Shown: positions 4,296-60,985 of the stretch, piece by piece
Layout of the letters: each line of letters opens with the position of its first letter
Position numbering within the stretch: the stretch's first letter is position 1
NCBI GenBank assembly: GCA_965203275.1
Contig: OZ241865.1
Coordinates: forward strand, 1,664,001 to 1,728,000
Length of the DNA: 64,000 nt
Source: Bdellovibrionales bacterium
GTDB lineage: Bacteria > Bdellovibrionota > Bdellovibrionia > Bdellovibrionales > JAUICD01
Reading direction: 5' to 3'
Notes under the pieces: model-generated
Database searches by the model: none
Told to the model about the DNA's origin: nothing
The model's input: only the letters and a program-made list of their open reading frames with translations
Position numbers and translations under genes: made by a program

Positions 4296-5700
4296 TTTCA
4301 CTAAAAGTGGTCTGTTTCCCTAAAATTGAACTAGCCTCTGGCTACTTTTGGGCAGTTAGCCCGACGGCTACCGCCGTCGATCAAAGGCTGAGCTGTTTCA
4401 CTAAAAGTGGTCTAGCCTCTGGCTACTTTCTGGCGATGACCACGATGGCTTTCGCCATCGATAAAATGGTCATCGCCTAGAAAGCCTGACCACTTTTAGT
4501 AGGAAGGATCCTTTCCTCTTTTGACACGATGTTAAGGAAAAAGCTCCTTCCGATACCCATTTGCCGGATGCCGGATCCCGGATAAATACGATGTTAAGGA
4601 AACAAGATATTCACTCCCGGGATCAGGCAGTCCGGCAAGCAGGCATCCCGTGTTCCGGAACCTGATACCGGGTTGCCAGATCCCGGATCCCAGATAAACA
4701 TCCAAACACCTATAAGAAGTTTTTAGCCAAAAGAAGCCTGATTTCTGCCATTTCCTTTAGAGGCATATATGCTTTATCGGCTTTTTCGAAAAATTCTTCC
4801 CACGTCTTTGTGCTAGGTTCGTCTTTCTTTCACTAAAAGTGGTCTGTTTCACTAAAAATAAACCAGCCGTCATTTTCACTCAAAATGCATCATGCCTCTG
4901 TTTCCCTAAAATTGAACTAGCCGTCTTTTGCACTAAAAGTAAACTGACCTCTGGTCACTTTTGGGTTGCCAGCCGAAGGCTATTCGCCTTCTTAAATGCT
5001 GGCAACCTCAAAAGTCCGTTTACTTTTAGTAGGGGAGGATCTCCTCGTTTTTTAACACCATGTTAAGGAAAGAGAGTTCTTTCTGATGCCGGATCCCGGA
5101 TCCCGGATAAATACCATGTTAAGGAAACAAGATGTTTATTTCACGTCGATAAAATGGTCATCACCTCAAAAGCCTGACCACTTTTAGTGAAAGAAAGGCA
5201 TGATGCATTTTGAGTGAAATGTTAAGGAAAAAAAGTTCTTTTTTTGTTTTTTTATTCTCTTTTAGATTCTGCGTAATTTTCAAAAAAACACAAAATAAAT
5301 ATTTTATGAGTGGGAGGCGGGGGCAGGCTAAAGGAGCTGTTTCCCTAAAAGTGGTCTAGCCTCTGGCTACTTTCTGACAATGACCACGATGGCTTTCGCC
5401 ATCGATAAAATGGTCATTGCCTAGAAAGCTTGACCACTTTTAGTAAGGAGGATCTCTTCGTTTTTTAACACGATGTTAAGGAAACAGAGTTTCATTTGTA
5501 AACCCGCTTGCTCCTCAAAAACATTTTAGAAGCATATCTTGTTTCCCTAACATGGTGTCAGAAGCAAGGAGATTCGCCCTACTCAAAATGAGCGGATTTT
5601 TGAGGCATTGCTCTTTTTGGACAGCGATAGCTGTCAGAGCAATGCCCAAAAACACACCAGATGTGTGGCTCATTTTGAGTGAAAAAAGAAGGTTAGGGAT
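4296..5700. repeat. Mosaic cluster of structured element A (full copies 4396-4540+, ~4927-5071+, 5340-5484+, 5542-5684-) with GATCCC and E modules
   Basis: Recurring TTTCAC..nested stems..GTTAAGGAAA units. Confidence 0.9.
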
Positions 5701-8900: not shown

Positions 8901-10182
8901 AAGAAGGGAACGAGAAGAAAGAAGAGAACGAGAAGCAAGAGAGCGAAGGGCAAGAGCAGAGCAGCCAAATCAAGGGCAACGAACAAGCACCCAGTCTGAT
9001 CCAAGGAGTCAATGGGCTGCTGATAGAGTCCGTTTAACTCAAGTCAGAGCAGCTTTAGAAGCTCCTCATGTCAATGCTTATGCTATCACACATGTTAAGC
9101 TTTTCCCTATTGCTAAACCACGCTTAGACCCCTACCCATTTACAAGAGACGAAGATATGGCACATCTGTCTTTGAAAAACAGAAATGACGGATTTACCTT
9201 AGAAGTATTTAACCCTGAGCAACCAGAGCAGAGCAAAGTTGTTCTAGCTCAAAAAATACATGATATTGAAATGAGTATCAGGTGTCATGATCAACTCAAT
9301 TGTAATGAAAATATTCTTCGTTATAGATCTAATGATCATCAAGATAGCCAGTGGCAAACGTATCCTCTTTCTAACTTGATCGGATATGAGAGTGGCAACA
9401 ATGTTTATCAAATGAGAATAATCTCAGATAAAGAGCATGGAGATACTCAAGTGAGATGGGGTACTGGTCGCCGTCGAGTGAATAGATATTATAGAGGTCA
9501 CTTTCGTATAGCTATTACTAAGAGAAAAAGCAATGACATGATGGAATGGAGCTTGATCAATGATGTTCCCGTAGAACAATATCTTCGTTCAGTTGTTCCG
9601 GGTGAGATGCCATTGACAGATGATCAAAGTGCTTCAAGGACTGCCTTTGCTGCTTTAAAGGCTCAAGTGATAGCAGCCAGGTCATATCTTTTCAGTAAGA
9701 TCAAAGAGAATAGACATGTCAAAGCAATGGGATGGGATGTAGACCCTACAACATGGTTTCAGTCTTATCCAGGTTCTAAAGAAGTAAGAAGTGGCAGAGT
9801 AAGAAACAGAGAATTTTTAAGAAGCGATGAAGCAGTGGAAGCCACAGTGGGTGTGATCCTCACATATCGAGGACAGTTAGCTATGACAGAATATCATGCT
9901 TGCCGAAGAGATAGCACAAGATCAAGTAGCAGTCTACCTATATTTAGAGCAAAGAAGATTCCAAGTGGAGAGAGATGTGGTCGTTACAGAGGTGAAGGAG
10001 GTCATGGTCGTGGTTTATCTCAGAGAGGTGCTATGTGGCTAGCCCGTGTAGGATGGGATGATGAAGAATCACCTACAGAAAATGCCACCAAGCCTGAAGA
10101 TGTTACAGAGCCATGGAGTCATGTTGATATTCTTCGCTACTTTTATCACGGAGTCAATGTCCAAAATCACCACGAGCTTTAG
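5939..10182 (+). CDS. Lipoprotein with ankyrin repeats, 5 internal repeats and a C-terminal SpoIID/LytB domain, frameshifted at a C15 tract
   Basis: Lipobox-like SFIAC. The frame of the 6466 ORF stays open back to the poly-C. Ankyrin ALHCAAEKGFLEVVKLLL. SpoIID motifs EQYLRSVVPGEM, ALKAQVIAARSY, GHGRGLSQRGA. Confidence 0.8.
6213..6227 (+). repeat. C15 homopolymer, candidate phase-variation tract
   Basis: 15 consecutive C in an AT-rich genome at the frame junction. Confidence 0.85.
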
Positions 10183-10183
10183 G

Positions 10184-11210
10184 CTCACTAAAAGTAAACT
10201 GACCTCTGGTCACTTTTGGGTTGCCAGCCGAAGGCTATTCGCCTTCTTAAATGCTGGCAACCTCAAAAGTCCGTTTACTTTTAGTAGAAAGGATCCTCTT
10301 GCTTTTTGACACCATGTTAAGGAAAAAGAGTTCTTTCTGATCCCGGATCCCAGGCCCCGGATCCCGGATCCCAGATCCCGGATCCCAGATAAATACGATG
10401 TTAAGGAAACAAGATATTTATATTTATTTCACTCCCGGGATCCGGGATCCGGTAATCTGGCATCCCGGGATCCGGGATCCGGTAATCTGGCATCCCGGGA
10501 TCCGGGAACTGATGGCGGGTTGCCGGTTTGTTTCACTCAAAATAAATCATGCCTCTGTTTCCCTAAAATTGAACTAGCCTCTGGCTACTTTTGGGCAGTT
10601 AGCCCGACGACTGTCGTCGTCGATCAAAGGCTAACTCCCTCAAAAGCTTGTTCAATTTTAGGAAGAAGGATCTCCTCGTCTCTTGACCACATGTTAAGGA
10701 AAATATCCTTTTAATACCAGTTAGCCCGACGGCTACCGCCGTCGATCAAAGGCTGAGCTGTTTCCCTAAAAGCGGTCTAGCCTCTGGCTACTTTCTGGCG
10801 ATGACCGCAAAGGCTTACGCCTTTGACAAAATAGTCATCGCCTAGAAAGCCTGACCACTTTTAGTAGGAGGATCTCTTCGTTTTTTAACACGATGTTAAG
10901 GAAACAGAGTTTTATTCGCAAACTGTTTGCTCCTGAGATAATAAAAGAAATTTTCCTTAACATGGTGTAAAGGAATAAAAAGATCCTCCCTACTCAAAAT
11001 GCATAGATTTTTGAGGCAATCAGCCTTTGATCGACGGCGGTCGCCGTCGGGCTGATTGCCCAAAAACATGCCAGAGGCATGATGCATTTTGAGTGAAATG
11101 TTAAGGAAACAAGCTATTTATTCCCGGGATCCGGCAAGCAGGCATCCCGGGATCTGATGCCGGGCTACCGGATGCCAGATGCCAGATCCCGGATCCCGGA
11201 TCCCAGATAA
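10184..11210. repeat. Mosaic cluster of element A (10184-10325+, 10558-10702+, 10761-10904+, 10952-11098-) with GATCCC modules
   Basis: Same nested-stem units; begins 2 nt after a stop codon. Confidence 0.9.
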
Positions 11211-19826: not shown

Positions 19827-19969
19827 TTTAAAATCCTCCTTGAGCTTGTTAAAATTGATTTTTTACTATACAATAAACTTTGAGGACTGTCAAGAAATAA
19901 AAATTTATAAACTTATTTTTGTATAAATACAAGCCATGGTTAGATTTTAACAAATTACAGAGGTCAAAA

Positions 19970-22024
19970 ATGACAAATTCTATACTAGGTCTTCAACTTA
20001 TTTTAGAGAAAGGAGAAGGCCATAAAACTGAATTTAAAGAGAGCTTAAGTTCAGGATTAGATAAAACCATAGTGGCTTTTGCTAACTCCTCTGGAGGTAA
20101 AATCTATATTGGTATTACTGATCAAGGAAGGATTAAAGGGCTTTCTATTACAAATAGGCTCAAAGCTCAAATAGAAAATATTGCAAAAAGCTGTGATCCC
20201 AGAGTGGCTATTTCTATTCGAGAAATAAAAAAAGAAAAGATATTAGTAATTACTGTTAAAGAAAGTAAATCAAAACCTCATAAATGCTCTTCTGGTTTTT
20301 ATATTCGCTCAGGGGCATCCTCTCAAAAGCTTACAACAAAAGAAATACGAGCATTTATGGAAAATGAAAATGTCATTAGCTTTGATAGTGTATTTTGTAA
20401 AAAATTTGTTTATAGTAAGCATTTTGATAAAGAGAAATTATTTTCATTTTTAGATAAAGCAAAAATTACTTACAATAGAAAAGATATAATACCATTACTA
20501 GAGAACCTAGATGTTGCAAAAAAAAAGGGTTCTAAAATTATTTTCAATAATACAGGTGTTCTTTTTTTTGCTAAGAATTTAGATGATATTTATCATCATA
20601 CAAAAATCTCATGTGTTCGTTTTAAGGGAATAGAAAGAGTTCATATTTTAGATCGGAAAATATTTAACAATGATATGCTTAGCAACATCAATAATGCTCT
20701 TTTATTTTTAGAAAATCATCTTCAATTAGAGTACAGAATTACTTCTAAAAGCTTACAAAGAACAGAAGTATTAGAAATTCCAAAGGTTGCTTTAAGAGAA
20801 GCCATTATTAATGCTGTTACTCACAGAGATTATCTTAATCAAGGAGCTAATATAAGCATAGAGATATATGATGATAGAGTAGAAATTTCCAGTTTTGGTA
20901 GTTTGCCTAAGGGGATCAGCTCAGAAAATTTCGGCAGAAAAAGCATCCTAAGAAATCCTATTATTGCTAATCTTATGCTCAGGACAGGATATATTGAACA
21001 AATGGGAACAGGTATTGAAAGAATGAAAAGTTTAGTCAAAAAAGCAGGTTTAGATCCCATTAAATTTGAATTCAATTCTTTCACAACAGTTGTCTTCTAT
21101 CGTCATCCTTTATTATTATTTTTTATTCGTCAAATTCTATCCAAAGTCTATCCAAAAGCTCTAACAAATGCAGAAATTAACAAAGAACTTGAAGAAAGGT
21201 ATGACATATCCAAACACACTGATCAAGATCAAACAAAATACAAAGCTGGGACTTCATATCAGGCTTTAAAACAGCTAAAAGACATGAAAATAGTTGAACA
21301 ACTAGGAGGTAGAGGAACATGGAGACTTGCGAGTAAAGACGTCGGTAATGATGTCGGTAATGATGTCGGTAAAGATGTCGGTAATGACGTCGGTAATGAC
21401 GTCGGTAATGATGTCGGTAATGACGTCGGTAATGATGTCGGTAATGATGTCGGTAAAGATGTCGGTAATGACGTCGGTAATGATGTCGGTAATGACGTCG
21501 GTAATGATGTCGGTAAAGATGTCGGTAATGATGTCGGTAATGATGTCGGTAAAGACGTCGGTAATGACGTCGGTAATGATGTCGGTAATGACGTCGGTAA
21601 TGACGTCGGTAAAGATGTCGGTAATGATGTCGGTAATGACGTCGGTAATGATGTCGGTAATGACGTCGGTAATGACGTCGGTAATGACGTCGGTAATGAT
21701 GTCGGTAATGACGTCGGTAATGACGTCGGTAATGACGTCGGTAAAGATGTCGGTAATGATGTCGGTAATGACGTCGGTAATGATGTCGGTAATGAATTGA
21801 AGACAGAGTCTAGGAGAATTCTTAAGTTATTGAAAATATTAAAGCTTATAGATAATAATAATTTTTCTGTTGCTTTATTTGCAAAACAGCAAGGAATAAA
21901 TAAACGCACAATAGAAAGAGATATAAAGTTTTTAAAAGATAGAGGGTTCATTTCCATTGAAGGGAAAACAAAATCTGCAAGATACAAGACCACAAAAAAA
22001 TATAAACGTTTAAAAAAAAATTAA
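19970..22024 (+). CDS. Schlafen/AlbA_2 + ATP-binding (HATPase_c_4-like) + wHTH protein with DVG(N/K)x38 linker
   Basis: [56 protein letters not shown]-terminal [14 protein letters not shown] 19970 preferred as start. Confidence 0.88.
21338..21793 (+). repeat. 12-bp tandem repeat GAYGTCGGTAAW x38
   Basis: 456 bp counted directly. Confidence 0.97.
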
Positions 22025-28099: not shown

Positions 28100-29310
28100 G
28101 GTTCACGCAAAATGGTCATTTGTTTCCCTAAAATTGAACTAGCCTCTGGCTACTTTTGAGCTGGATCTTCAATTTATTTCTTAAATTTCAAAATCATTGC
28201 CCTGAGACCAGATTCTTTCCCATTCATATCATTAGCTTTTATCACTTTTTACTCATTTGGCTTCGTTATTTAATGCTTCAAATTCAAAAAATGATTGCGA
28301 ATGGTAATTGGCAGTTAGCCCGACGACTTTCGTCGTCGATCAAAGGCTGGCTACCTCAAAAGCTTGTTCAATTTTAGGAGGAGGATCGCCTTGTCTCTTC
28401 ACATGATGTTAAGGAAAAAGTTTTTTTTGATGCCGGGTTGCCTGACTGCCGGATCCCAGATCCCGGATCTCGGAAAAAATCAAATTTAGCTTTAAGTATT
28501 TTTACACAGTTTATATAAAAAAGCTCCTAATTTATCAGCTTGTTTTGCTAATTCCATACAACCAACAAATTCTAGATCCAATATTGCCTGAGTTGTTTCA
28601 CTAAAAGTGGTTGGCTCACTCAAAGTGAACTGACCTCTGGTCACTTTCTGGCGATGACCACGATGGCTTTCGCCATCGATAAAATGGTCATCGCCTAGAA
28701 AGCCTGTTCACTTTGAGTAAGGAGGATCCCTTCGTTTTTTTACACAATGTTAAGGAAAAAGTTCCTTTTTTTATTTTTTTATTCTTTTTAGATTCTGCGT
28801 AACCATCAAAAAATGAAGAATATTATGAGTGGGAGGCGGTGGTAGGCTGAAGATCTTCCGCAGACTCGCTTGCTCTCCAAAAGCAAGCGAAGGTTGAGGA
28901 CTTCGGAAGCCTGCCTCCGCATTCCACTCATAAAAAACATACAAATAGAAAAGCAGAATCGAAGGGCGGGGGGTGGGGTTAGGGAGTTAGCTGTTTCACT
29001 AAAAGTGGTCTGACCTCTGGTCACTTTCTGGCGATGACCACGACGGCTTTCGCCGTCGATAAAATGGTCATCACCTAGAAAGCCTGACCACTTTTAGTAG
29101 AAAGGATCTCCTTGCTTTTTAACACCATGTTAGGGAAACAAGATATTCGTCTTTTTAGATTTTTTTCTAAAAGATGGGGAAATTAGGGTTTGAAAATTAG
29201 AAATTCAGTGATTTCAATAAGTTAATACTGTGACTTTTGTATAAAAGTTACAGTATTAAGTGTTTGTAATTGTTAGACTTTTTTAGGTCGACTTTAGAAA
29301 TTTCTCATTT
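28100..29310 (+). repeat. Mosaic cluster: interrupted element A (28123-28417), A (28615-28758), module E (28759-28986), A (28994-29138), module D (29139-29310)
   Basis: Units recognised by identity to copies elsewhere in the window. Confidence 0.88.
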
Positions 29311-29409: not shown

Positions 29410-30687
29410 ATGAAAAAATATATTTTTATCCTATTTATTGCTTTGCTTGTTTCTAGTGATTCTCTATCTATGGACCTAGGGAAGACTTGTGTTGGAGTCC
29501 TTATGTCAAATTTAAAACAAAAAGTTATTAAAAAGCCCTTAAGTGAGAGTGAATTATTGAATCTAAATAATAGGTTATTAAATCTTGTTCGTGCCAGCGG
29601 CCGTACTAGATTGATAAAGAAAGTGCTAGAAAATGGTGCTAACGTCAATTATCAAAACGAAAATGGCAATACGGCTTTAATGGTGGCTAGTTATGAAGGA
29701 GATATAGAGATTGTAAAGTTATTGCTAAAAAAGGGAGCTAACGTCAATCTTCAAAACAAATATGGCATGACGGCTTTAATGTACGCTAGTTCTAAAGGCC
29801 ATATAGAAATTGTAAGGTTATTGCTAGAGGTTAGAGCTAGTGTTAATCATCCTGAAATTGTAAGGTTATTGATAGAGTTTAGAGCTAACGTCAATCATCA
29901 AGACGAAGATGGCATGACGGCTTTAATGTTGGCTAGTTCTAAAGGCCATATAGAAATTGTAAGGGCATTGCTAGAGGCCGGAGCTAACGTCAATCTTCAA
30001 AACAAAAATGGCAATACGGCTTTAATGTATGCTAGTCATGAAGACCATATTGAAGTTGTAAGGGCATTGCTAGCGGCCAGAGCTAACGTCAATCATCAAG
30101 ACGAAGATGGCGATACGGCTTTAATGTATGCTAGTCATGAAGACCATATTGAAGTTGTAAGGGCATTGCTAGCGGCCGGAGCTAACGTCAATCTTCAAAA
30201 CAAAGATGGCGATACGGCTTTAATGTATGCTAGTCATGAAGACCATATTGAAGTTGTAAGGGCATTGCTAGCGGCCGGAGCTAACGTCAATCATCAAGAC
30301 AAAAATGACAATACGGCTTTAATGGTGGCTAGTCTTGAAGGCCATATTGAAGTTGTAAGGGCATTGCTAGCGGCCGGAGCTAACGTCAATCTTCAAAACA
30401 AAGATGGCAATACGGCTTTAATGTATGCTAGTTCTAAAGGCCATATAGAAATTGTAAGGTTATTGCTAGAGTTTAGAGCTAGCGTCAATCTTCAAAACTC
30501 TGGTGGCTGGACGGCTTTAATGGTGGCTAGTCGTGAAGGCTATATAGAAATTGTAAAGTTATTGCTAAAGGCCGGAGCCAACGTCAATCTTCAAGATAAA
30601 GAAGGCAAGACAGCTCTATGGTTTGCTAGAAATAAAGGACGTACTGATATTGAAAGACTATTAAAAGAGGCCGGAGCTACAGAATAA
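29410..30687 (+). CDS. Secreted ankyrin repeat protein (~11 repeats)
   Basis: Signal peptide; repeated GNTALMYAS..HIEVVRALLAAGANVN. Confidence 0.95.
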   Translation: MKKYIFILFIALLVSSDSLSMDLGKTCVGVLMSNLKQKVIKKPLSESELLNLNNRLLNLVRASGRTRLIKKVLENGANVNYQNENGNTALMVASYEGDIEIVKLLLKKGANVNLQNKYGMTALMYASSKGHIEIVRLLLEVRASVNHPEIVRLLIEFRANVNHQDEDGMTALMLASSKGHIEIVRALLEAGANVNLQNKNGNTALMYASHEDHIEVVRALLAARANVNHQDEDGDTALMYASHEDHIEVVRALLAAGANVNLQNKDGDTALMYASHEDHIEVVRALLAAGANVNHQDKNDNTALMVASLEGHIEVVRALLAAGANVNLQNKDGNTALMYASSKGHIEIVRLLLEFRASVNLQNSGGWTALMVASREGYIEIVKLLLKAGANVNLQDKEGKTALWFARNKGRTDIERLLKEAGATE

Positions 30688-30779
30688 GACCAATTCTATT
30701 TATCCTTATGTAAGTCCAAAGCCCGGCTTGAATTTTCTAAAATCCTATATTTCCATAGGCCATAGTTTTTTATAAGGAA

Positions 30780-31600
30780 ATTTTTCCTTAACATCGTGTC
30801 AATCCGGGATCTGGGATCCGGCAACCGGCATCTAAATGAACTCTTTCCTTAACATGGTGTTAAGAGAAAAAAGGATCCTCTCTACTCAAAGTGAACAGGC
30901 TTTTGAGACAATGACCATTTTGTCAAAGGCAAAAGCCTTTGCAGGCAACACTCAAGGCGTAAGAAGGAACTTTTTCCTTAACATGTGGTCAAGAGACGAG
31001 AGGATCCTTCCTACTAAAAGTAAACGGACTTTTGAGGTTGCCAGCATTTAAGAAGGCGATAGCCTTCGGCTGGCAAGCCAAAAGTAGCCAGAGGCTAGTT
31101 TACTTTTAGTGAAAAAGAGAGGTGTGGCTCATTTTGAGTGAACCAAACCCTTAACATGGTGTTTATCCGGGATCTGGGATCCGGGAACCCGGCATCAGGT
31201 CCTAAAGCATTGATTGTAATGAATTTTTTCATCTAAAAAATTTCCTCCTGAGCCCTTGGCGGGTTTAAAATGAACTTTTTCCTTAACATGGTGTTAAAAA
31301 ATGAGGAGATCCTCCCTACTAAAAGTAAACGGACTTTTGAGACATTGCTCTTTTTAGACAGCGATAGCTGTCAGAGCAAACATCAGAAGGAAATCTTTTT
31401 CCTTAACATTGTGTTAAGAAATGAGGACATCCTCCTTCCTAAAATTGAACAAGCTTTTGAGACAGTTAGCCTTTGATCGACGGCGAGAGCCGTCGGGCTA
31501 ACTGTCCAAAAGTAGCCAGAGGCTAGTTTACAAAAGTGGCCAGAGGCTTAACAGTTCAATTTCCTAAAGCAGGTAATGAATTTTTTCACTAAAAAATCGC
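30780..31600 (-). repeat. Mosaic cluster of element A (full 30973-31114, near-full 31398-31530, partials)
   Basis: Reverse-strand copies starting TTTCCTTAAC. Confidence 0.88.
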
Positions 31601-33244: not shown

Positions 33245-34047
33245 TTTATCCGGGATCTCGGATTCCATATAAACATCATGTTAAGGAAACAAGAGTTCCT
33301 TTTTTTGTTTTTTTATTTTTTTAGATTCTGCGTAACTCTCAAACAAAAAGTAATTAGGTGGAGGATGGGGCAGTGGGAGACTGAAGATCTTCCGCAAATT
33401 GAGCTTGCTTCCCAAAAAGATTTTAGAGGCATATCTTGTTTCCTTAACATGGTGTCAGAAGCAAGGAGATCCGCTCTACTCAAAATGAGCAGATTTTTGA
33501 GGCATTGCTCTTTTTAGACAGCGATAGCTGTCAGAGCAAACATCAGAAGGAAATCTTTTTCCTTAACATGTGGTCAAGAGACGAGAGGATCCTCCCCTAC
33601 TAAAAGTAAACGGACTTTTGAGGTAGCCAGCCTTTGATCGACGGCGGTAGCCGTCGGGCTGGCTACCCAAAAGTGACCAGAGGTCAGTTTACTTTTAGTG
33701 AAAAACAGAGGTGTGGCTCATTTTGAGTGAAATGTTAAGGAAACAGAGTTTCATTTGTAGACCCGCCTGCTCCTTAAAAACATTTTAGAAGCATATCTTG
33801 TTTCCTTAACATGCTGTAAAGGAATAAAAGGATCCTCTCTACTTAAAATGAACAAGCTTTTGAGGTAGCCAGCCTTTGATCGACGGCGTGAGCCGTCGGG
33901 CTGGCTACCCAAAAGTGGCCAGAGGCCAGTTCATTTTGAGTGAAATGTTAAGGAAAAAGTTCAGTTTTAGGGCCTGTTGCCGGATCCCAGATCCCGGATC
34001 CCGGATCCCAGATCCCGGATGCCGGATCCCGGATAAATACCATGTTA
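33245..34047. repeat. Mosaic cluster of element A (33558-33703-, 33801-33945-), partial E, GATCCC module
   Basis: Identity to other copies. Confidence 0.88.
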
Positions 34048-40576: not shown

Positions 40577-42757
40577 ATGAAAAGTCAAATTTGTGATCAA
40601 GTAACATTAAAACTTATTATAATTTTTATTTTTTTAGGGATGATAACGTCTGGATGTGATTCTAGTACAAAGCCTGAAAAACCACATCTTCCAAGTCAAC
40701 AAAGTCCAGAGGTTCAAGATATTCAAGATGTTTATGAAATCCACGAAACACCCAATAATACAGAGATAGTATCAGAAGTACCTACAGAAATTATGGATAT
40801 GTCAAAAGAATCTCCATTTGAAGAAGTTCCATTTGAAGAAGTGGTGATCAAAGAGTTCGAAGATACTAGTACAGAACAAAATACAAATTTAGAGCCTCAA
40901 AAACCTGATATTTCCTTTATTCAGGCTGTAGAGCAGAACAAAGTAGATACTATACAAAAATGGCTTGAAATGGCAACAGACCCTGATGCAAGAAACAGCA
41001 AAGGGCAAACAGCTTTGATCATAGCTGCTTGTCAGGGTTATATAGAAGCTACACAGATGCTTTTAAATGTAGGTGCTGATCTCTACTTAAAAGATCAGTT
41101 AGATCATTCAGCTGTGATGTGTGCTATTTCTAAGGATTATATTAATGTAGCCCGAATGCTTTTAGAGCATACAGAAAACCTCAACCTAGAAGTCAATGAA
41201 AGAGGTGAAAGCATCTTGATATGGGCTGCTCGCATGGGCTATGAAAGGGCTGTATCATTGCTGATTGAATTAAATCTTAATTTGAATATTCAAGATAAAT
41301 ATCATTATACAGCCTTAATATGGGCTGCCAGAAATGGCCATACAAAGGTAGCTCGTTTATTGATAGATGCTAAAGCTAATGTAAATGCACAAGATAATTC
41401 TGACAACACAGCACTAATGTGGGCAGCTTTTTATAATCACATAGAGATAGCTAAGATGCTTATAGCTAATCGCATAGATCTCAACTTAGCAGATGATCAT
41501 GCACACACAACTCCTTTGATGTGGGCTACTTTAAGAGATCATATAGAAATAGCTGAAATGCTTTTAGAGGCAGGGGCAGATCCTGTCCCTAGCTATCTAA
41601 ATACTTATACACCTCTTACATGGGCGGCTCTTAAAGGTTATAGCTCAAAAATTTCATTACTTCTTAAAGATGGTGAAGATCCTAACGTAAGGGATCAGCG
41701 TGACAGGATTCCTTTGCTCACAGCTATCAGAAAAAATACAACAGCAATCGTTAAACCTTTCATGGAAACAAACATAGATCTCAATGTGAAAGATGGAGAT
41801 GGTAATACTTTATTGATAAAGTCTGCCTATTATGGTCATACAGATATTCTTAAGATACTTATAGAAAAAGAAGTAGACCTCGATATTCAAAACAATGAGG
41901 GATACAACAATATAGGATACAGTGGATTGATGCAAGCTGTTCGAGGAGGTCATATAGAAGCAGTTAAGTTATTAGTGGAGGCAGGGGCAGATCCTTTTTT
42001 AAAAAGAGGATCTGTAACAGCCTTAAGTTTTGCTGCAATAGAGGGTCATGTAGAAATATCTAGGATACTCATAAGTTTTATGCTTGAAAGGAATCCTCAA
42101 TTTTCTGATGATTATGCTTTTCTTTGGGCTGTCAAACATGGACATATAGAAATTGTCCGATTAATGGTAGCTGGTGGTTTTGATGTAAATACTAAGATAT
42201 CATCACCTAAGTCAGTTCTAGCAGAAGCTATTTCCCATCGCTATATAGATATAATAGAGCTATTAATAAATTCTGGTATTAATGTAGGACGTGGCAGTGC
42301 AAACACTTCGCCTGTTGCAACCTACAAAAGAGATGCTAATGGAGAACTACCTCTTACCCTTGAATCGATTTTCGACACTGTACCTCCTTTAATCAGAGCT
42401 ACTAATATAGGAGATACAAAAATAGTCAGCATGCTTTTAGAGGCAGGTGCGAACCCCAATCGCTATGGTGATTATGGAAATACAGCTTTGATTCATGCAG
42501 CTCGAAAAGGTTATACGGAAGTTATGGCCATGCTGTTAGCAGTAGGTGCTAGAATTGATTCACAAAATCGTTATGGCAGAACAGCTCTAATGGAGGCTAT
42601 TGATAAGGGTAAAACCACAGTAGCTCTTTTACTGATAGAAGCAGGTGCTAAACTTGATATTGTAGATATCGATGGTTATACAGCCCTAAGCCTAGCACGT
42701 CAAAAGAATAACAGAAGAGTTATAAACAAGTTATATGCGTATAATGTTAGAAGATAG
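40577..42757 (+). CDS. Ankyrin repeat lipoprotein
   Basis: Lipobox ITSGC; many TALIWAA-type repeats. Confidence 0.93.
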   Translation: MKSQICDQVTLKLIIIFIFLGMITSGCDSSTKPEKPHLPSQQSPEVQDIQDVYEIHETPNNTEIVSEVPTEIMDMSKESPFEEVPFEEVVIKEFEDTSTEQNTNLEPQKPDISFIQAVEQNKVDTIQKWLEMATDPDARNSKGQTALIIAACQGYIEATQMLLNVGADLYLKDQLDHSAVMCAISKDYINVARMLLEHTENLNLEVNERGESILIWAARMGYERAVSLLIELNLNLNIQDKYHYTALIWAARNGHTKVARLLIDAKANVNAQDNSDNTALMWAAFYNHIEIAKMLIANRIDLNLADDHAHTTPLMWATLRDHIEIAEMLLEAGADPVPSYLNTYTPLTWAALKGYSSKISLLLKDGEDPNVRDQRDRIPLLTAIRKNTTAIVKPFMETNIDLNVKDGDGNTLLIKSAYYGHTDILKILIEKEVDLDIQNNEGYNNIGYSGLMQAVRGGHIEAVKLLVEAGADPFLKRGSVTALSFAAIEGHVEISRILISFMLERNPQFSDDYAFLWAVKHGHIEIVRLMVAGGFDVNTKISSPKSVLAEAISHRYIDIIELLINSGINVGRGSANTSPVATYKRDANGELPLTLESIFDTVPPLIRATNIGDTKIVSMLLEAGANPNRYGDYGNTALIHAARKGYTEVMAMLLAVGARIDSQNRYGRTALMEAIDKGKTTVALLLIEAGAKLDIVDIDGYTALSLARQKNNRRVINKLYAYNVRR

Positions 42758-42766
42758 AGGCGTTTG

Positions 42767-43110
42767 GTTCACTCAAAATGCATCATGCCTCTGGCATGTT
42801 TTCTGGCAGTTAGCCCAACGGCTTATCGCCGTTGATCAAAGGCTAACTGCCTAGAAAATCCATTTATTTTGAGTAAGGAGGATCTCTTCGTTTCTTGACA
42901 CCATGTTAAGGAAAAAGATTTCCTTCTGATGTTTGCTCTGACAGCTTACGCTGTCTAAAAAGAGCAATGCCACAAAAAACTGCTCATTTTGAGTAGGGAG
43001 GATCTCTTCGTTTCTTGACACCATGTTAAGGAAACAAGATGTTTATCGCAAAGGCTTTCGCCTTTGATAAAATGGTCATTGCCTCAAAAATCTATGCATT
43101 TTGAGTGAAA
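42767..43110 (+). repeat. Element A (42767-42914) plus two partial tandem copies
   Basis: Nested stems; hub at 42905 and 43025. Confidence 0.88.
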
Positions 43111-43131: not shown

Positions 43132-43806
43132 ATGAAAAATGATGAAAATAACCTATTTTTAAGTTTAACAAAAGATCGCATTTTCAAGATTTTTTTTAAG
43201 GGCCGAGAAGATTTAGTCAAATCACTCTTAGAGAGTTTTTTACCTTTGCCAAAAGGTTCTGTGATAGAGAGTGTTTCCATATTGGATCCTGAACTTCATC
43301 AGGACAAGATTCATAAGTTATTCGTATTAGATTTATGTGTCAAAATAAGGCGAATGTTAAATGGTGTTCTTGCAAGGCCGGAGAAAGTGAATGTGGAGGT
43401 TCAGACCACATCTTATAAGCATTTTACAGATAGGGTATTAGCTTATTCTAGTCGTCTTTATGGTAATCAATTGAGGGAGGGTGAAGGTTTTGATCAGTTA
43501 CTTCCTATATACACACTTGTTTTCACAACAGTTAATTTGAGAGAGTTTAAAGATGTACAAGATTATTGCCATATTTGTAATCTCCGTAGAACAGAGTATC
43601 CTTATGCTGTGATGTCTAAGGGTATGTGTTTTGTGATAGTAGAGTTAGATAAGTTTCGTTCAGAATTAAACCATTTGCTTGACAAAAGAGATGCTTGGTG
43701 TTATCTTTTAAAGAATGCAAGTAATATGAATTTAAAGGAGTATACCAATTTTCAGAATAAAAGGGATCCTTCTTCTGGGATCTGGCAACCCGGCATCAGG
43801 TCCTAA
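43132..43806 (+). pseudogene. Rpn/PD-(D/E)XK nuclease family transposase, N-terminal part truncated by an element insertion
   Basis: KDRIFKIFF, VLDLCV..VNVEVQ, DRVLAYSSRLY..QL, WCYLLKN; the last codons come from the repeat. Confidence 0.85.
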
Positions 43807-43961
43807 AACTGAACTTTTTCCTTAACATTGTGTTAAAAAAGGAAAGGATCCTTCCTACTAAAAATAAACGGATTTTTGAGGCAATCAGCCTTTGATCGAC
43901 GGCGAGAGCCGTCGGGCTGATTGCCCAAAAACAGCCAGAGGCTGGTTTATTTTTAGTGAGA
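43765..43961 (-). mobile_element. Element A (43817-43961) with tail, inserted in the Rpn gene
   Basis: Splits the gene; flanked by AGAATAAAAGG at 43754-43764 and 43959-43969. Confidence 0.8.
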
Positions 43962-43976
43962 ATAAAAGGAGGTATT

Positions 43977-44363
43977 ATGGCAAAGGCAGCGGATCATCTA
44001 TGGGACTTATCGCAGGACGAAATTTTGCAAGAAATTGCATTTAAGGAGAGATTAAATGAGATGGAGCGACAGGCAATAGAGAAGGAACGACAAGAAGCAG
44101 AGAAAGAACGACAACAAGCAGAGAAAGAACGACAACAAGCAGAGGAGAAGAAGCGACAAGCAGAGGAGAAGAAGCGACAAGCAGAGGAGAAAGAGGCTAG
44201 GGAAAAAGCAGTTAAGCAAGCAGTAGAGCAAGGGATGGAACAAGGGATGAAACAGAAACAAAAAGAATTTGTTCTTAAGTTAATTGAGAGAAAAATGAAA
44301 TTACAAGAAATTTGTGAGATCACTGGCTTATCGGAGGCAGAGGTTCAAAAAATGAGCAAATAA
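43977..44363 (+). CDS. Rpn C-terminal segment (RpnS-like small protein)
   Basis: AAGGAGG-N4-ATG; coiled-coil repeats, GMEQGM, EICEITGLSEAEVQKM. Confidence 0.75.
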   Translation: MAKAADHLWDLSQDEILQEIAFKERLNEMERQAIEKERQEAEKERQQAEKERQQAEEKKRQAEEKKRQAEEKEAREKAVKQAVEQGMEQGMKQKQKEFVLKLIERKMKLQEICEITGLSEAEVQKMSK

Positions 44364-44951: not shown

Positions 44952-47900
44952 ATGAAAAGTAAAGTATTGATAACCTTGTTTATATTGGTCTTTTGCTTTG
45001 CTATAGATACAATAGATACAAATGTACACGCTCAAAGTCGCACTGTAAGTGACCTCTTAAATAAGATTTCTAAAAAGCGTGTCAAAAAGAGACAAACAGC
45101 AGTACCTACATTACAAGATCCAAAACCTAAAAGAATTAAAAGATCTCAATTAAGACGGGTAGCTCCCACAAAGAGATCATCAACGTCCTTTTTAGGTCAA
45201 AGTGGAGACGAAGCCCAATTAGGAAAACTCCTTGATGAAGAAATTAAACAACTTTTTAAACTCATGCAACGTTATCAAAAAAGCAATGACCGAGGAGAAA
45301 TTTGGTTGCGTCTTGCAGAAAGATATATAGAAAAATCTAAACTTTTAGAGATAAACATTCAACGAAAGTTTGATAAAAGATTACAAAAATGGGAAAATAC
45401 AGGTCGCCAAAGCAATCCTCCTAGGCTCAACTTAAAGCCAGTTTATGTTTTCAATAGAAAAGCTATTGAGCTTTATAGGCTTTTTCTAAAAAACTTTCCA
45501 AAAGATAGCAAAATAGACCAAGCATTGTTTTTCCTCGGCTGGAATTACTTTAACTTAAATCAAGCAGATGAAGGTGTTAAATATTATAATCGTCTTATTG
45601 TAGAACATAAAAGAAGCCCTTATGTTAAAGAGGTTTATTTTGAACTAGGAGATTATTATTTTGAAAAGAAAAACTGGAACAGAGCTAAAAAAGAATTTTT
45701 AAAAGTAGCTCGCAAAAAACCAAAAGACAGATTTTATCACCTTGCAATCTATAAACTTGCATGGTGTGAATACAACTTAGGTAATGGGCCAAAAGGTATT
45801 AGGTATTTAGAAAGAGTGCTAACTGAGACAAAAAAATTATCGGCATCCAATAATTTGAATAATAAAGGCATAAGTCACATCCATTTAGCTAGAGAGGCTA
45901 CAAGAGACCTCATTGTGTTTTATTCTAAAGTGAAAAATTATAAAGGTGCTAAAGCTTACTTCCGGAGATTTTTTAATAGAGAAACTGTTAGTAAACATCT
46001 TGAAGAACTAGCGTATATTTATGCTGATGATAAAAACCATCAGGCAGCTCGTCATGTATTTAAAATTTTAATTCAAGAAAATTCCACATCTCCAAAAGCT
46101 TTTGAATATCAAAGAGAAATTGTGTCTGTTTACCACGGCTTGGAATCACCTATTTTCAAATCAGAGCTTTTTGACTGGGTCTCTAAATATTCTAAAAAAA
46201 GTCGATGGGCGACTGCTAATAGAGAAAATACAGATGTTTTACAAAAAGCCGAAAACACCCGTGAAGATACTCTTCGAAGATATATATTAGGCATTCATCA
46301 AACAGCTCAAAAATCCAATGCCCTTCGTAGCAAAAAAGAAGCTATGGAAGGATATAACATTTATCTTAATTATTTTGCCAATCATAAAGAAGCAATAGAG
46401 ATGAGATTTTATTTTGCAGAGCTTCTCTATGATCTTAAAAGATTTCCACAAGCATCTGTCCAATATCTTAAGGTAGCTGATGCAAAATCTAAAAATAAAT
46501 ATTCCAATGAAGCTCTAATGAATGCCTTTTTAGCATTAGATCAAGGATTAAAACAAAACAAAAAACGCATCAATAAAAATACTAAAAGAGTTCCTTATCC
46601 TCCCGCAGAAAAGCAATTCTTAGCAACAGCTCAAAAATATCTACCTAGACTCAAACAAACCAATCCCGACAAAGTAGCCAATATTGCATTTAAAATAGCC
46701 CATATCATGTATACACATAACCATTTTGATCAAGCTTTAAAGTCCTTTTGGGATATCATTAAAGTCTATCCTAATACTGAATTTACAGAATCTTCTGCTC
46801 ATTTAATTTTAGATATTTATAATTTGAAAAAAGATTATGTAGGTCTGATCACTGCGGGAACACGGCTCATTCAGTCACCTTCTTTAAATCCTAAAATGAA
46901 AGCCGAAATCAAGGCTATTGTAGAGGGTTCTCAATTTCAAATTGCTCAAAACTTAGAGAAGCAAAAGAAATACAAAGACAGTGCAAAAGCTTATGGAGCT
47001 TTTGCAGACAAAAATCGAAAGTCTAAATTATATGCTCTTGCTATTTTTAATGCTGCAATTAACTATGAAAGAGGCAATGATATTCTAAGAGCTATCAAAT
47101 ATCATAGACAAGTTGTCAATACTAAAAATGCAGTTTCCAAAAGAGATCACCACCAAAAGTCAAGACGTATTTTAGCAACCCTTTATGAAAAGACAGGGCA
47201 ACTCAAGAAGGCAGCGTTTCATTTTGAAGCGTATGCAAAAGCTTATCCTAATGATCAATACACAAATGAATCTTATCATAATGCAGCTATTATTTTTAGA
47301 GGCTTCAAACAATATGACAAAGCTGTTCAAAATTTTAATTCTTATTACCATGCATCCCAAAACTCCAAGGCGGATAGATCAAAACGTCTATCTGCTCTCA
47401 TTTCTATTGCAGAAATTCATGAGCAAACAAATAGAAAAAAGAGAGCTTATGCTTATTATGAAAGATATATCAGAGAAAACCCATCAGATCCTGCAGAGAC
47501 TATTCTTGCTCACGTAAGATTAGCTCGTATTGCAGCTGATTTAAAGTGGAAGAAAAGAGCAAGTGAATGGTATACCAAAACTGTGGCTGTTCAAAAAGCT
47601 TACTCTAATATAGGAAAGTCAGAAGCTGCTGAAGCAAAATTTTATCTCTTACAAGAAACATATACAGAATTTCGATCGCTTCGCATACCTGTTAATCAAG
47701 CTCGTCAAGCAGGAGTTATTAATAAGAAGTTAGCTTTGTTGAAGACACTCAGTGCAAAGCTAGCTGAGGTTGTTGCTTATGATGATCCCAATTATGTGAT
47801 TCGTTCTGTCACTCTTATTGGTGAAGCGAATGAACATTTTGCTCAAGCAGTGATGACAGCTCCGCTTCCTCCAGGTCTTAATAAAGCACAAGAAGAGGAA

Positions 47901-52200: not shown

Positions 52201-52426
52201 ACTTGCTCAGAGAAATTCCAATATCTCAGGTCGAATTGATTTTAATTGGACTATTATATCGAATGGTCGAGTTGGGGAAGTGAAAGTTACAAAAACACAA
52301 ATTAATGATGCTCGAACACTTGATTGTATGAAAAGGCGTTTATCGTCGTGGAGATTCCCTGATCCTCCTGAAGGGGTGATTGGAGATATAAATTATCCAT
52401 TTGTGTTTATAACGTCTAGACAATAG
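49226..52426 (+). CDS. GltG/PglI-like protein (FHA-like, Pro/Gln linker, TM, TonB-like AgmX/PglI C-terminus)
   Basis: MDKEAIRKVVRRNLRQLRTCYE..SWRFPDP..INYPFVF. Confidence 0.88.
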   Translation: MKDIFLKIYYNQQLIGVKQFRTDRVVLGSGNVDIRLEGLLLAHAEIIKRKDGHYYIVTGPEFVFIKGQWVKEYLLSTHEFFQIGPYQIEVYLGFPEAVSLPPIQPIPQASSGGVQSQPIPPPASNMQPHQHTPALHPQQIQPIAPPSGTPPHTAPPPQQIQPVTPPSGTPPQTAPPPQQIQPIAPPSGTPPQIAPPPQQTQPVTPPPGTPPQTAPPPQQTQPVTPPPGTPPQTAPPPQQTQPVTPPPGTPPQTAPPPQQTQPVTPPPGTPPQAMPLQPPSQTPVTPSQAEQYPPAITPYLSHPMPPAPPPPQVPLQQQESQESSEQKTSTISLTQTESAQLLSELMAEEQTEVTSTQVPSQYPDPQISPELSQQTQPVVPPPGTIPQTAPIPQSTQPVTPQPTQSVAPQPTQPVAPQPTQPVAPQPTQPVTPQPTQSVAPQPTQPVIPQQAVQVQPQVTQQQIPPSPDISVSATKSSKDLLTEEAKRQPSEEIHDQVDLYGASQMTQKAEMVSSSSPTPITEETEEDTVSLHKPRKSYRKKATFASSSDLKDINERIKPEEGSVIKVLVTWNEKILNTLYFDSNSTVTVGSHPKSDILLPVFGSSQYLHKLIKISNLASLSITHKMKGVLVKNSEHIPFDDLINSGAANRSKSGFNIDLQRGEMARVDFENGLSIFVKYTAPTPKPLLGPFLALTSGQLNGLIMAIGSTIVMAIFFLMVHEPIAIEPEDELEERTATFVYKKPPPPRIEPIPVVKKEPPKPIKIKPRKVKPKEKPKKRPQPQQVAKTKPKQPVKRRVVRRAKEGARPKDLKPVSKKTKSKQFAAGTSKNGREALQAKRGAGKGGGSGAKAEGRKKKDINQIGLLGTFSKGGLEDTLRTASDGAGVVGGAARKARGAGGSASGRGGVGAGGGLAAIGRGGKGESTYGIPGGVKTRGRGGGTKGYGFGSLGGKSNVRVDLPGGVGETITGMMDKEAIRKVVRRNLRQLRTCYERLAQRNSNISGRIDFNWTIISNGRVGEVKVTKTQINDARTLDCMKRRLSSWRFPDPPEGVIGDINYPFVFITSRQ
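49634..50570 (+). repeat. Coding tandem repeats: 60-bp x~7 and 24-bp x~7
   Basis: QQTQPVTPPPGTPPQTAPPP and PQPTQPVA units. Confidence 0.9.
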
Positions 52427-52465: not shown

Positions 52466-52637
52466 ATGTTAGTAGTGGGGTGAGAAATATAAAATAGCTT
52501 ACACTATTGAGACCTGTTGCCTCAAAAGAAGGAACATAAAAAGAATACATTTTGAAGAAAACAGTAACCGGAGGGAAATGAACACCTTGTTTCCTTTCAG
52601 TTACTTAAAATGGTATGAGAAAAATTAGAAGGAACTT

Positions 52638-52779
52638 TTTCCTTAACATGGTGTTAAGAAATGAGGAGATCCTTCCTACTCAAAGTGAACAGTTCTAGGC
52701 AATGACCATTTTATCGATGGCGAAAGCCATCGTGGTTATCGCCAGAAAGTGACCAGAGGTCAGACCACTTTTAGTGAAC
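52638..52779 (-). repeat. Solo chimeric element A in the aglR leader
   Basis: Its two outer stem arms come from different subfamilies. Confidence 0.85.
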
Positions 52780-56697: not shown

Positions 56698-57722
56698 TTT
56701 CCTTAACATTTCACTCAAAATGCATCATGCCTCTGGTTCACTAAAAGTAAACTGACCTCTGGTCACTTTTGGGTAGCCAGCCCGACGACTTTCGTCGTCG
56801 ATCAAAGGCTGGCTACCTCAAAAGTCCGTTTACTTTTAGTAGGGAAGGATCTCCTCGTTTTTTGACGCAATGTTAAGGAAAAAGATTTCCTTCTGATATT
56901 TGCTCTGACAGCTTACGCTGTCTAAAAAGAGCAATGCCGCAAAAAACTGCTCATTTTGAGTAGAGGAGGATCTCATTGTCTCTTAACATCATGTTAAGGA
57001 AACAAGATATTTATATTTATATTTATTTCACTCCCGGGATCCGGGATCAGGCAATCTGGCATCCCGGGATCTGGGACCTGATGCCGGTTTGCCCGATCCC
57101 GGGATCCCGGATCCCAGATCCCAGATCCCGGGATCCCGGATCCCAGATCCCGGGATCCCGGATCCCAGATCCCGGGATCCCGGATCCCAGATCCCAGATC
57201 CCGGGATCCCGGATCCCAGATCCCGGGATCCCGGATCCCAGATCCCAGATCCCGGGATCCCGGATCCCGGGATCCCGGATCCCGGATCCCGGGATCCCGG
57301 ATCCCGGATACCGGATCCCAGATCCCAGATCCCAGATCCCGGATGAACACCATGTTAAGGAAAGAAGATGTTCGTCTTTTTAGATTTTTTTTCTAAAAGG
57401 TTAGGAAAAGGGTATTTAAAAGGCATTTGGAAATTAGAAATCCAGTGATTTCAATAAGTTTGTTTCACTAAAAGTAAACTGACCTCTGGTCACTTTTGGA
57501 TAGCCAGCCCGACGGCTGTCGCCGTCGATCAAAGGCTGGCTATCTCAAAAGTCCGTTTACTTTTAGTAGGGAGGATCCTCTCGTCTCTTAACTCCATGTT
57601 AGGGAAACAAGACGTTCATTTTTCTGTATTTTCTAAAAGATAGTGAAAAAAAGTATTTGAAAATTAGAATTTAAGTGATTTCAATAAGTTAGCACTGTGA
57701 CTTTTGTATAAAAGTCACAATT
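56698..57722 (+). repeat. Mosaic cluster: A (56736-56881), partial A, GATCCC module, D fragments, A (57463-57607)
   Basis: Identity to other copies. Confidence 0.9.
57095..57341 (+). repeat. GATCCC(A/G/GG) 7-8-mer microsatellite, ~34 units
   Basis: Read directly. Confidence 0.95.
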
Positions 57723-60566: not shown

Positions 60567-60985
60567 TTTCACTTTCACTCAAAATGCATCATGCCTTTGG
60601 TTCACTAAAAGTAAACTGACCTCTGTTTCACTCAAAGTGAACTGGCCTCTGGCCACTTTTGGGCGATGACCGCAAAGGCTTTCGCCTTTGACAAAATGGT
60701 CATCGTCTCAAAAGCCTGTTCACTTTGAGTAAGAAGGATCTCTTCGTCTCTTGACCACATGTTAAGGAAAAAGTTCCTTCTTACACCTTGGGCAATGACC
60801 GCAAAGGCTTCCGCCTTTGACAAAATGGTCATCGTCTCAAAAGCCTGTTCACTTTGAGTAAGAAGGATATCTTCGTCTCTTGACCACATGTTAAGGAAAA
60901 AGTTCCTTCTTACACCTTGGGCAATGACTGCAAAGGCTTTCGCCATCGATCAAAGGCTGATTACCTCAAAAGCCGATTAATTTTA
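60567..60985 (+). repeat. Element A (60626-60770) followed by a 129-bp tandem concatemer
   Basis: GGGCRATGAC at 60661, 60790 and 60919. Confidence 0.9.

Follow-up and report, generated by a model that had tools for sequence, protein, structure and literature searches.

Element A, a putative REPIN-like DNA hairpin repeat dispersed at high density in a Bdellovibrionales genome

Intergenic DNA that repeats one folded unit hundreds of times raises the question of whether that unit is an RNA, a part of some known transposon, or a mobile DNA of its own. The question is posed here by a stretch of 64,000 nucleotides (hereafter the window), bases 1,664,001-1,728,000 of the single contig of a Bdellovibrionales bacterium (GenBank assembly GCA_965203275.1, contig OZ241865.1; 2,567,810 bp, G+C content 35.1%). 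Positions 4396-4540 of the window are part of one copy of a ~155-bp repeat, which we call Element A. With a confidence only a little above even, we favor the reading that Element A is a lineage-restricted, non-coding, selfish DNA hairpin repeat with a core of ~157 bp, REPIN-like, whose mobilizer is not among the usual enzymes.

Results

Element A is dense and intergenic

A profile search of the window found 19 full copies and 14 partial ones, distributed over both strands, a copy being called full when it extends from position 10 or lower to position 148 or higher of the hidden Markov model (HMM). All ten coordinates named in the original prediction, which was made from the letters of the window, turned out to be full copies on the strands given there. 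The tail motif TGTTAAGGAAA, allowing at most one mismatch, occurs 42 times in the window; shuffled sequences contain it 3.7 ± 2.0 times, and none of 100 shuffles reached 42. Genome-wide, after removal of overlapping opposite-strand matches, we counted 1334 loci (737 full and 597 partial), which together make up 6.4% of the genome. The full copies represent 665 distinct sequences and lie on both strands (357 plus and 380 minus). Measured against our set of open reading frames (ORFs), 98.6% of the element DNA is outside genes (2154 of 157,966 element bases fall within ORFs), as are all but 8 of the 737 full copies, and Element A accounts for about a quarter of the 649 kb of intergenic DNA.

The helices differ in sequence and remain complementary

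Each unit begins with TGTTTCAC, continues as a three-way junction and ends with a 3′ tail. In the junction, helix P1, of 12-13 bp, surrounds two hairpins: a short one, P2, whose TCT loop is invariant, and a long one in which P3, a helix with a bulged T, is capped by the P4 tetraloop hairpin. The tail contains a small palindrome around GGATC and a hairpin, TTRACA-N3-TGTTAA, forming small inverted repeats around a near-invariant TGTTAAGG(AAA). The layout originally proposed, TTTCAC-P1-P2-P3-P4-A-rich joiner-P3′-P1′-GGAGGATC-TTRACA-N3-TGTTAAGGAAA, was reproduced with RNAalifold on the 19 window copies and in single-sequence folds. The bulged T, described as invariant, is nearly so, being a G in one P3 variant (21 copies).

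The extensive compensatory changes claimed for this fold are real. Among the 19 window copies, 26 of the 48 pairs vary on both sides (17.6 ± 1.8 in shuffles) and 96.5% of the pair cells hold a standard pair, compared with 83.4 ± 0.7% when the partners are shuffled; neither value was matched in any of 500 shuffles. Controls in which the partner was slid by 1-3 columns brought pairing down to 27.6-48.1%. Over the whole genome, 94.1% of 23,699 pair cells (662 distinct full copies) are Watson-Crick, and most pairs use two to four Watson-Crick types. The pattern extends to a sister species (genome G001), where 56 matches in 401 kb have 93.4% of their cells paired and 36 of the 48 pairs are compensatory; moreover, 10 of 36 pairs use, in the copies of other genomes, Watson-Crick types seldom or never seen in this one. 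Folded as either DNA or RNA, both strands give z-scores between -7.6 and -10.7. The common variants number ~10 for P1, 8 for P2, ~20 for P3 and 10 for P4, each with a matching partner strand.

The copies are young or homogenized, as variants below 2% frequency occur at a rate of 0.23% per site in paired positions and 0.45% in unpaired ones. Rare variants located in stems mostly break the pair (67 cases, with 16 giving G-T and 21 still Watson-Crick), and the covariation therefore lies between variant classes and does not come from copy-by-copy repair. Helix variants are also shuffled: 218 P1-P2-P3-P4 combinations exist among the 737 full copies, and the adjusted mutual information declines with distance (0.56 for P1-P2, 0.59 for P3-P4, 0.30 for P1-P4). 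It is nevertheless higher between the two arms of P1, ~90 nt apart (0.67), than between P1 and the intervening P3 (0.49). Something keeps the partners together, which may be selection for foldability during propagation, an exchange of nested cassettes as wholes, or a switch of template inside the palindrome. Template switching is described as a known source of mutation where inverted repeats are imperfect (PMC7202029), and by analogy it may act in Element A. Of the original proposal that the repeat is selected on its structure, the retained complementarity stands, but template switching during replication could give complementary changes without selection.

Element A has moved, and also grows in tandem

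Comparison of two paralogous stretches of the genome revealed an exact insertion of 157 bp, from TGTTTCAC to TGTTAAGGAAAAAGTTCTTCTATC, with a 0-bp target duplication and near-identical flanks (two mismatches over ~65 left-hand and 85 right-hand bases). From this pair it follows that Element A has moved. Another clean event is found in the Rpn-family PD-(D/E)XK nuclease genes, of which 5 of 14 paralogs, including one in the window (Table 1), are interrupted at a single codon, the intact ones representing the empty site. This insert consists of an inverted Element A and ~55 nt of heptamer-like DNA between 11-bp direct repeats, and its 5′ end is 4 nt shorter than in the exact insertion. The five interrupted genes count as one insertion event that was later copied along with the gene. 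No common target motif was apparent among the few clean insertion sites.

Tandem arrays occur elsewhere in the genome with periods of 157, 260 and 290 nt, the next unit of an array starting 2-4 nt past TGTTAAGG. The one orthologous site that could be compared between genomes is the spacer between rpsQ and rplN, in the ribosomal protein gene cluster, which measures 23, 14 and 38 nt in this genome (G000) and in two relatives (G002 and G003), and contains no Element A in any of them. In the sister species, the same spacer is 798 nt long (G001:C1:2842660-2843560) and contains four antisense 201-nt units (85% matches), each including the final 33 nt of rpsQ; in a G001-like contig binned with a further genome (G004), the number of units there is three. 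Unit 3 of the G001 array carries other P1, P3 and P4 variants, so exchange or re-insertion must also have acted at this site. Arrays of 26-27-nt stubs of the 5′ end and truncated copies are also present, and in 164 of 1283 cases the 5′ end of an element comes after the P2 loop of the stub before it. Head-to-tail stub arrays in the window have units of 17-27 nt (Table 1). An origin of the stubs by nested insertion into the P2 loop was rejected, as the outer 3′ remainder often mismatches the P1 of the stub.

Under the reading that we favor, the unit would be copied or moved in trans as folded single-stranded or cruciform DNA, through a route that leaves no target duplication, either transposition of single-stranded DNA (ssDNA) or a site-specific recombination that uses the TGTTAAGG joint. 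Only foldable copies would propagate, which would keep the helices complementary, and intrastrand template switching or gene conversion may contribute.

Several observations weigh against this reading. The two clean events disagree, both in their target duplication (0 bp versus 11 bp) and in their 5′ and 3′ ends. Apparent target duplications of at least 30 nt (30-140 nt) are mostly tandem duplications of the element and its flank, so much of the spread could be recombination and not transposition. As no mobilizing enzyme was found (see below), the evidence for mobility in trans consists of two or three insertions, which comparisons of paralogs cannot date. Finally, the gene context was taken from a crude ORF gene set, and the positions of origin and terminus suggested by GC skew are uncertain. 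In assemblies of public runs (Logan contigs; X1, X2, X6 and X7), contigs break at the repeat clusters and no copy was bridged, the joints listed being repeat chimeras.

The usual mobilizing enzymes are missing from the genome

We searched the genome for the enzymes that move comparable repeats. No match to the Y1 HUH profile (Y1_Tnp) was obtained in G000, where the control was positive in 6 of 14 genomes, and the TnpA protein of G001 used as a query did not match either. Likewise, no RVT_1 reverse transcriptase was found (control positive in 3 of 14 genomes), nor any IS110 DEDD transposase (the positive control worked). The search with Y2_Tnp (IS91) also gave no match, but its control was silent everywhere, making the result uninformative. 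The only tyrosine recombinase genes of G000 are two of Xer-like type, one being split; their scores fall short of the integron-integrase cut-offs, and Element A does not bound either of them. The expectation that Y1 HUH, reverse transcriptase or element-bounded tyrosine recombinase genes would co-occur with the repeat was thus not borne out. That Element A is a non-autonomous mobile element agrees with the one exact 157-bp insertion, but no match to the Y1 HUH or reverse transcriptase enzymes named for it was obtained. With no Y1 HUH, reverse transcriptase or IS110 gene present, the mobilizer would not be a usual enzyme.

The REPIN/REP-RAYT system of Pseudomonas fluorescens SBW25 (PMC3116915, PMC3337134) provides the main comparison. 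REPINs are extragenic, fold as ssDNA, show compensatory hairpin changes described as 'common', and form tandem clusters that carry flanking sequence (PMC3116915). Judged by analogy, Element A appears closest to them in behavior: it is an extragenic, palindromic, ssDNA-foldable unit in hundreds of copies, spread within a lineage rather than across phyla, and it shares both the compensatory changes and the flank-carrying tandem clusters. The build is different, Element A being a four-helix three-way junction with an asymmetric tail and not a REP doublet. Its two ends, TGTTTCAC and TGTTAAGGAAA, do not represent a single REP in inverted orientation, and its helix variants are shuffled as modules. 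With no RAYT gene and no REP-doublet build, membership of the REPINs fails.

Element A could still be a REPIN- or PATE-type ssDNA element of a Y1 HUH transposase (RAYT or IS200/IS605 TnpA) whose gene was recently lost or lies on an unassembled replicon, which we consider unlikely. The IS200/IS605-derived palindrome-associated elements and the Rickettsia palindromic elements (RPEs) are small structured non-coding repeats of reduced or host-associated genomes, and RPEs often lie in frame within genes. Insertion of the IS200/IS605 type gives no target duplication, as in the exact insertion described above, and hairpins lie near both ends of Element A. One Y1 gene does exist in the sister genome, in addition to the REPIN-like compensatory changes and flank-bearing clusters. 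However, this single IS200-type TnpA (IS200 equivalog, 140.9 bits) is an unrelated, unlinked IS200, with end hairpins unlike those of Element A and the nearest copy 3.5 kb away, and G000 has neither RAYT nor TnpA. The Element A copies of G000 show very little decay, a replichore orientation bias was not detected (p = 0.21, a weak test), and Element A is excluded from genes, unlike RPEs.

The joint motif and the Rpn-family genes

The sequence TGTTA[AG]GG in the tail, referred to here as the joint motif, occurs at 1375 sites in the genome. At 966 of these, the sequence on the left is an Element A tail; at 84 it is where a heptamer array of GGATCCC type ends, at 100 the inverted 5′ end of another Element A copy, and at 225 something different. 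On the right, the two main continuations, AAG-type and CAA-type, stand in ratios of 525:294, 39:26 and 62:27, the left and right contexts assorting approximately independently. Together with the T-rich TTRAC that precedes it, the motif makes up an inverted repeat of 10 bp with 5 nt between the arms; its G001 counterpart forms a 9-bp terminal hairpin by pairing with a complement further downstream. The motif resembles a site for protein docking or recombination, but no protein is tied to it. A resemblance of the tail to dif was considered and found no support: a degenerate XerD-arm pattern gave 13 loose matches and 7 in the reversed control, none of them convincing.

Other repeats were noted as well. 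Arrays of 7-nt repeats (GGATCCC or CCAGATC type) lie between direct TGTTAAGGAAA copies at 57048-57355 of the window, as well as at 4560-4700, 10340-10400 and 33960-34030, and look like a second module with the same joint motif as Element A. The 'CAAGAT' tail class runs into a conserved, multi-copy extension of ~80 nt (for example, downstream of the copy that ends at window position 57609 and lies at genome position 1,721,460, a filled site), which is followed by a perfect 16-bp palindrome, TAATACTGTAACTTTT-GTAT-AAAAGTTACAGTATTA, and a conserved multi-copy stretch. Another family, of ~100 nt and with a GCTTGCTCC…GCAAGC hairpin, is found with or without Element A on either side; examples flank the copies at genome positions 830631, 1669335 (window 5335) and 706081.

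These joints call to mind the NIMEs (dRS3 + RS) and Correia elements, which, in the excerpts of PMC1797815, form mosaic intergenic arrays in which a short inverted-repeat motif surrounds 50-150-bp modules of many families, have no transposase known and are hypothesized to serve a recombinase. Their unit number varies between relatives, as does that of Element A (four units in G001 and three in the G001-like contig). Element A might accordingly be imagined as a scaffold on which TTTYYTTRAC-N5-GTTAAGGAAA docks a recombinase or nuclease (Xer-like or Rpn-family) and modules are exchanged at the joint, possibly to the benefit of the host through diversification of neighboring ankyrin and TPR genes. 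We regard this as improbable to the same degree as a Y1 HUH element. The number of joint sites and the independence of their two sides speak for it, as do the start of the next tandem unit 2-4 nt after TGTTAAGG, the terminal hairpin of G001 and the many PDDEXK_2 and Transposase_31 (Rpn/YhgA) matches in the genome (14 and 16, respectively). Against it, no enzyme is linked to the motif, and the exact insert ends 16 nt beyond TGTTAAGG and not at it. The joint motif of Element A has another sequence than that of NIMEs, lies within a large structured unit and is not linked to a phage integrase; its main module is one structured family, compared with more than 100 unrelated RS families for NIMEs, and neither the organism nor its base composition is related. 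A match between PDDEXK_2 and the presence of Element A in 5 of 5 genomes was dropped as evidence, since the G004 copies are on a probably mis-binned contig.

The Rpn-type genes are better explained as toxin/antitoxin defense genes. Rpn proteins are described as toxins with an intragenic antitoxin and variable four-residue repeats (PMC10400941). The Rpn-family PD-(D/E)XK genes, in the window (at 43132-43806 and ~43977-44360) and elsewhere in G000, have an internal Shine-Dalgarno sequence and ATG (…FQNK GGIM AEAAKHLW…) and variable GMEK/GIEK four-residue repeats. The Element A insert splits the five paralogs directly upstream of the internal start, leaving a nuclease ORF and a C-terminal ORF, an arrangement that fits the toxin/intragenic-antitoxin description of PMC10400941. 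We also considered that Element A might be the natural substrate of the Rpn-family PD-(D/E)XK 'putative transposases' (~30 genes), with the nuclease nicking the junction or the TGTTAAGG tail hairpins, the unit being copied into breaks and template switching regenerating complementarity. This seems quite improbable; if true, it would define a transposase-free, self-templating class of bacterial mobile DNA.

Ankyrin and TPR repeats are abundant in the gene content of the window (for example, 29410-30687, 40577-42757 and 44952-48863), which would accord with a host-associated lifestyle. In-frame tandem repeats of 12 nt (ORF 19919-22024) and of 99 nt (ankyrin; ORF 29410-30687) were noted, along with 60-nt and 24-nt proline/glutamine-rich units in ORF 49226-52426; the repeats span 21225-21800, 29503-30741 and 49563-50600.

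Gene context and strand symmetry point to DNA

The original prediction also offered a ribozyme or non-coding RNA, and a structured RNA (a cis-acting element of untranslated regions, a small RNA or a ribozyme), dispersed and selected for its RNA fold, must be weighed. The three-way junction is very stable, and the unpaired motifs (the TCT loop of P2, the bulged T, the A-rich joiners and the tail) are conserved in two species. The prediction took G-T wobbles as a sign that the TTTCAC-to-GTTAAGG strand is the folded one. This was not borne out for P1-P4, as GT/TG pairs number 251 and AC/CA pairs 367 in the 662 distinct copies, and 37 each in 60 copies from other genomes. Only the small tail hairpin tolerates a G-T on the plus strand, at one position (9 of the 19 window copies). 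The two strands of the reference copy fold alike (-43.6 and -43.6 kcal/mol as DNA, -69.7 and -70.8 kcal/mol as RNA).

Neighboring genes impose no direction on the repeat, with 184 copies in the same and 205 in the opposite orientation relative to co-directional genes. Tandem, convergent and divergent spacers are all occupied, approximately in proportion to spacer length. None of 4227 Rfam families matched anywhere in the window at gathering scores, and at E ≤ 1 only three plant or animal microRNA precursors appeared, with 19-25 bits against cut-offs of 80-130. Promoter-like sites are at the level of shuffles (4 versus 2.7 ± 1.6). In some copies, the short P5 hairpin with a T-run resembles a terminator; the terminator-like matches are the small P2 and P5 hairpins. 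The 597 truncated copies, the stub arrays and the nested and tandem forms also sit poorly with an RNA gene, and rare stem variants mostly break pairs. An RNA thus appears very improbable to us. On gene context, strand symmetry and the lack of a GT excess, we read Element A as an element that would act at the DNA level.

Resident insertion sequences and other known repeats

Apart from the Rpn-type genes, the multi-copy genes of G000 comprise an IS256-like element (8 copies), an IS4-like element and six genes of resolvase type. The IS256-like element is 1400 bp long; seven of its eight copies are mutually 99.8-100% identical (the eighth, 95.6%) and they have 8-bp target duplications, which indicates recent activity. 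Examples outside the window are G000:C1 214264-215663 and 626473-627872. Two copies sit inside Element A as later arrivals.

An ordinary miniature inverted-repeat transposable element, cut and pasted by the DDE transposase of such a resident insertion sequence, is hardly credible: although the size is typical, active IS256-like and IS4-like elements are present, one insert has an 11-bp direct repeat and at ~100 of 1375 joints the element is preceded on its 5′ side by an inverted TGTTAAGGAAA, which provides an 11-bp terminal inverted repeat, this left repeat is missing from most copies (conservation upstream of TGTTTCAC is at background), the target duplication is not fixed (0 versus 11 bp, the exact insertion having none) and, among the multi-copy ORF families screened, no parent has matching termini, the IS256-like (8-bp duplications) and IS4-like ends being unrelated to Element A.

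Pneumococcal BOX elements, in the excerpts of PMC3049150, are likewise modular (boxA-boxB(n)-boxC) stem-loops of variable length, with the mobilizer unknown and element-in-element insertions, but they are reported to have terminal inverted repeats and target duplications, and have serial modules and a far lower copy number, in contrast to the nested co-varying helices of Element A. Element A does not have the arrangement of integron attC sites either, being dispersed on both strands with no co-oriented cassette array beside an IntI, nor that of group II intron or retron-like repeats mobilized by reverse transcriptase, for which no RVT_1 match exists in G000.

Element A appears so far restricted to one genus

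A covariance model built from the window copies was used to search relatives, and Element A was found in 3 of 41: G000, the sister species G001, and G004. A sample of 150 other genomes from across the phylum yielded no match. G000 and G001 are ~69% identical over 173 long, largely coding high-scoring segment pairs, without synteny in the 400 kb compared; helix variants largely differ between them, while the unpaired motifs are identical. The G004 copies are on short contigs (C11, C4 and C1), one of which has a second rplN/L14 that is 98% identical to that of G001; the own L14 of G004 is on C14 and is 89% identical to that of its congener G003. The Element A contig of G004 is thus probably mis-binned DNA of a G001-like organism, and Element A would so far be restricted to one genus.

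Collections of plasmids, phages and viral contigs (IMG/VR) gave no match, the 19 single pattern hits being chance matches that do not fit the model. In a pattern scan of genome contigs, multiple matches among those listed were seen only in G001, and 59 other loci scored at most 22-28 bits compared with 120-188 for true copies. Among the papers listed for this organism group or element (15 of 204), nothing relevant was found, the single one that names 'Bdellovibrionota' being a survey of coral-skeleton microbiomes. The description of Element A as a non-coding, dispersed, multi-copy repeat whose helices are kept complementary, with no match among described RNA families, plasmids or phages, holds. 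As a side observation, the nearest lipoamide dehydrogenase among named genomes is 56% identical.

Table 1 Element A copies and associated features, in positions of the window
Feature	Position	Strand	Details
Reference full copy	4391..4543	+	TTTCAC 4396-4401; tail 4501-4540, with TTGACA 4521-4526 and TGTTAAGGAAA 4530-4540
Helices P1 and P2 of the reference copy	P1 4400-4412/4488-4500; P2 4413-4417/4421-4425	+	
Helices P3 and P4 of the reference copy	P3 4426-4442/4467-4484; P4 4443-4449/4454-4460	+	Bulged T 4478
5′ partial copy	4311..4391	+	HMM 3-83; adjoins the reference copy
Four short 5′ stubs in an array	4830..4925	+	TTTCAC and P1 5′ arm, with or without P2 5′ arm; full copy next
Full copy	4925..5074	+	
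3′ partial copy, then inverted stubs	5144..5232	+	GTGAAA stub ends adjoin TGTTAAGGAAA
Full copy	5335..5487	+	
Full copy	5540..5686	-	
Full copy	10182..10328	+	
Full copy	10555..10703	+	
Full copy	10756..10907	+	
Full copy	10951..11098	-	5′ end adjoins another TGTTAAGGAAA, in inverted orientation, at 11099-11109; the two frame the copy as 11-bp inverted repeats
5′-truncated copy	28308..28420	+	HMM 41-154
Full copy	28610..28761	+	
Full copy	28989..29140	+	
Full copy, then 5′-truncated copy	30841..31117	-	Full 30970-31117; truncated 30841-30953
Near-full copy, then truncated copy	31275..31530	-	Near-full 31395-31530 (HMM 19-154); truncated 31275-31390
Full copy, then truncated copy	33437..33705	-	Full 33555-33705; truncated 33437-33550
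Full copy	33799..33945	-	
Full copy and two truncated copies	42764..43107	+	Full 42764-42917; truncated 42922-43036 and 43041-43107; upstream of Rpn-like gene
Rpn-family PD-(D/E)XK nuclease gene	43132..43806	+	Shortened by the Element A-bearing insert; last 13 codons are repeat DNA
Full copy within the Rpn-gene insert	43814..43961	-	Insert ~43766-43963; flanks are an 11-bp direct repeat, AGAATAAAAGG
Full copy	52635..52779	-	
Stub, full copy and truncated copy	56734..57004	+	27-nt stub 56709-56735; full 56734-56884; truncated 56888-57004
Full copy	57460..57609	+	
Stub array and full copy	60594..60985	+	Stubs 60594-60652 (TRF, 26 nt x 2.3); full 60623-60773
Tandem 129-nt units	60659-60944	+	2.2 copies, 96% matches

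Discussion

Small structured repeats such as REP, BOX, ERIC, RPE, Correia and NIME have been known for decades, and to our knowledge only REPINs among them have a credible mobilizer. By comparison with these systems, we file Element A as a small structured intergenic repeat of a new family, REPIN-like in its working. A practical warning comes with it: strong covariation and very negative folding z-scores do not, in this case, indicate an RNA gene.

Element A is dense (6.4% of the genome), clean (fewer than 0.5% private changes per site), built of four co-varying helices and present in two closed genomes that are ~69% identical. Because it combines these properties with the lack of a Y1 HUH, reverse transcriptase or IS110 enzyme, it lends itself well to the study of two questions: how hairpin repeats can multiply when the known enzymes are missing, and what share of the 'compensatory evolution' of palindromes is due to selection and what share to template switching during replication.

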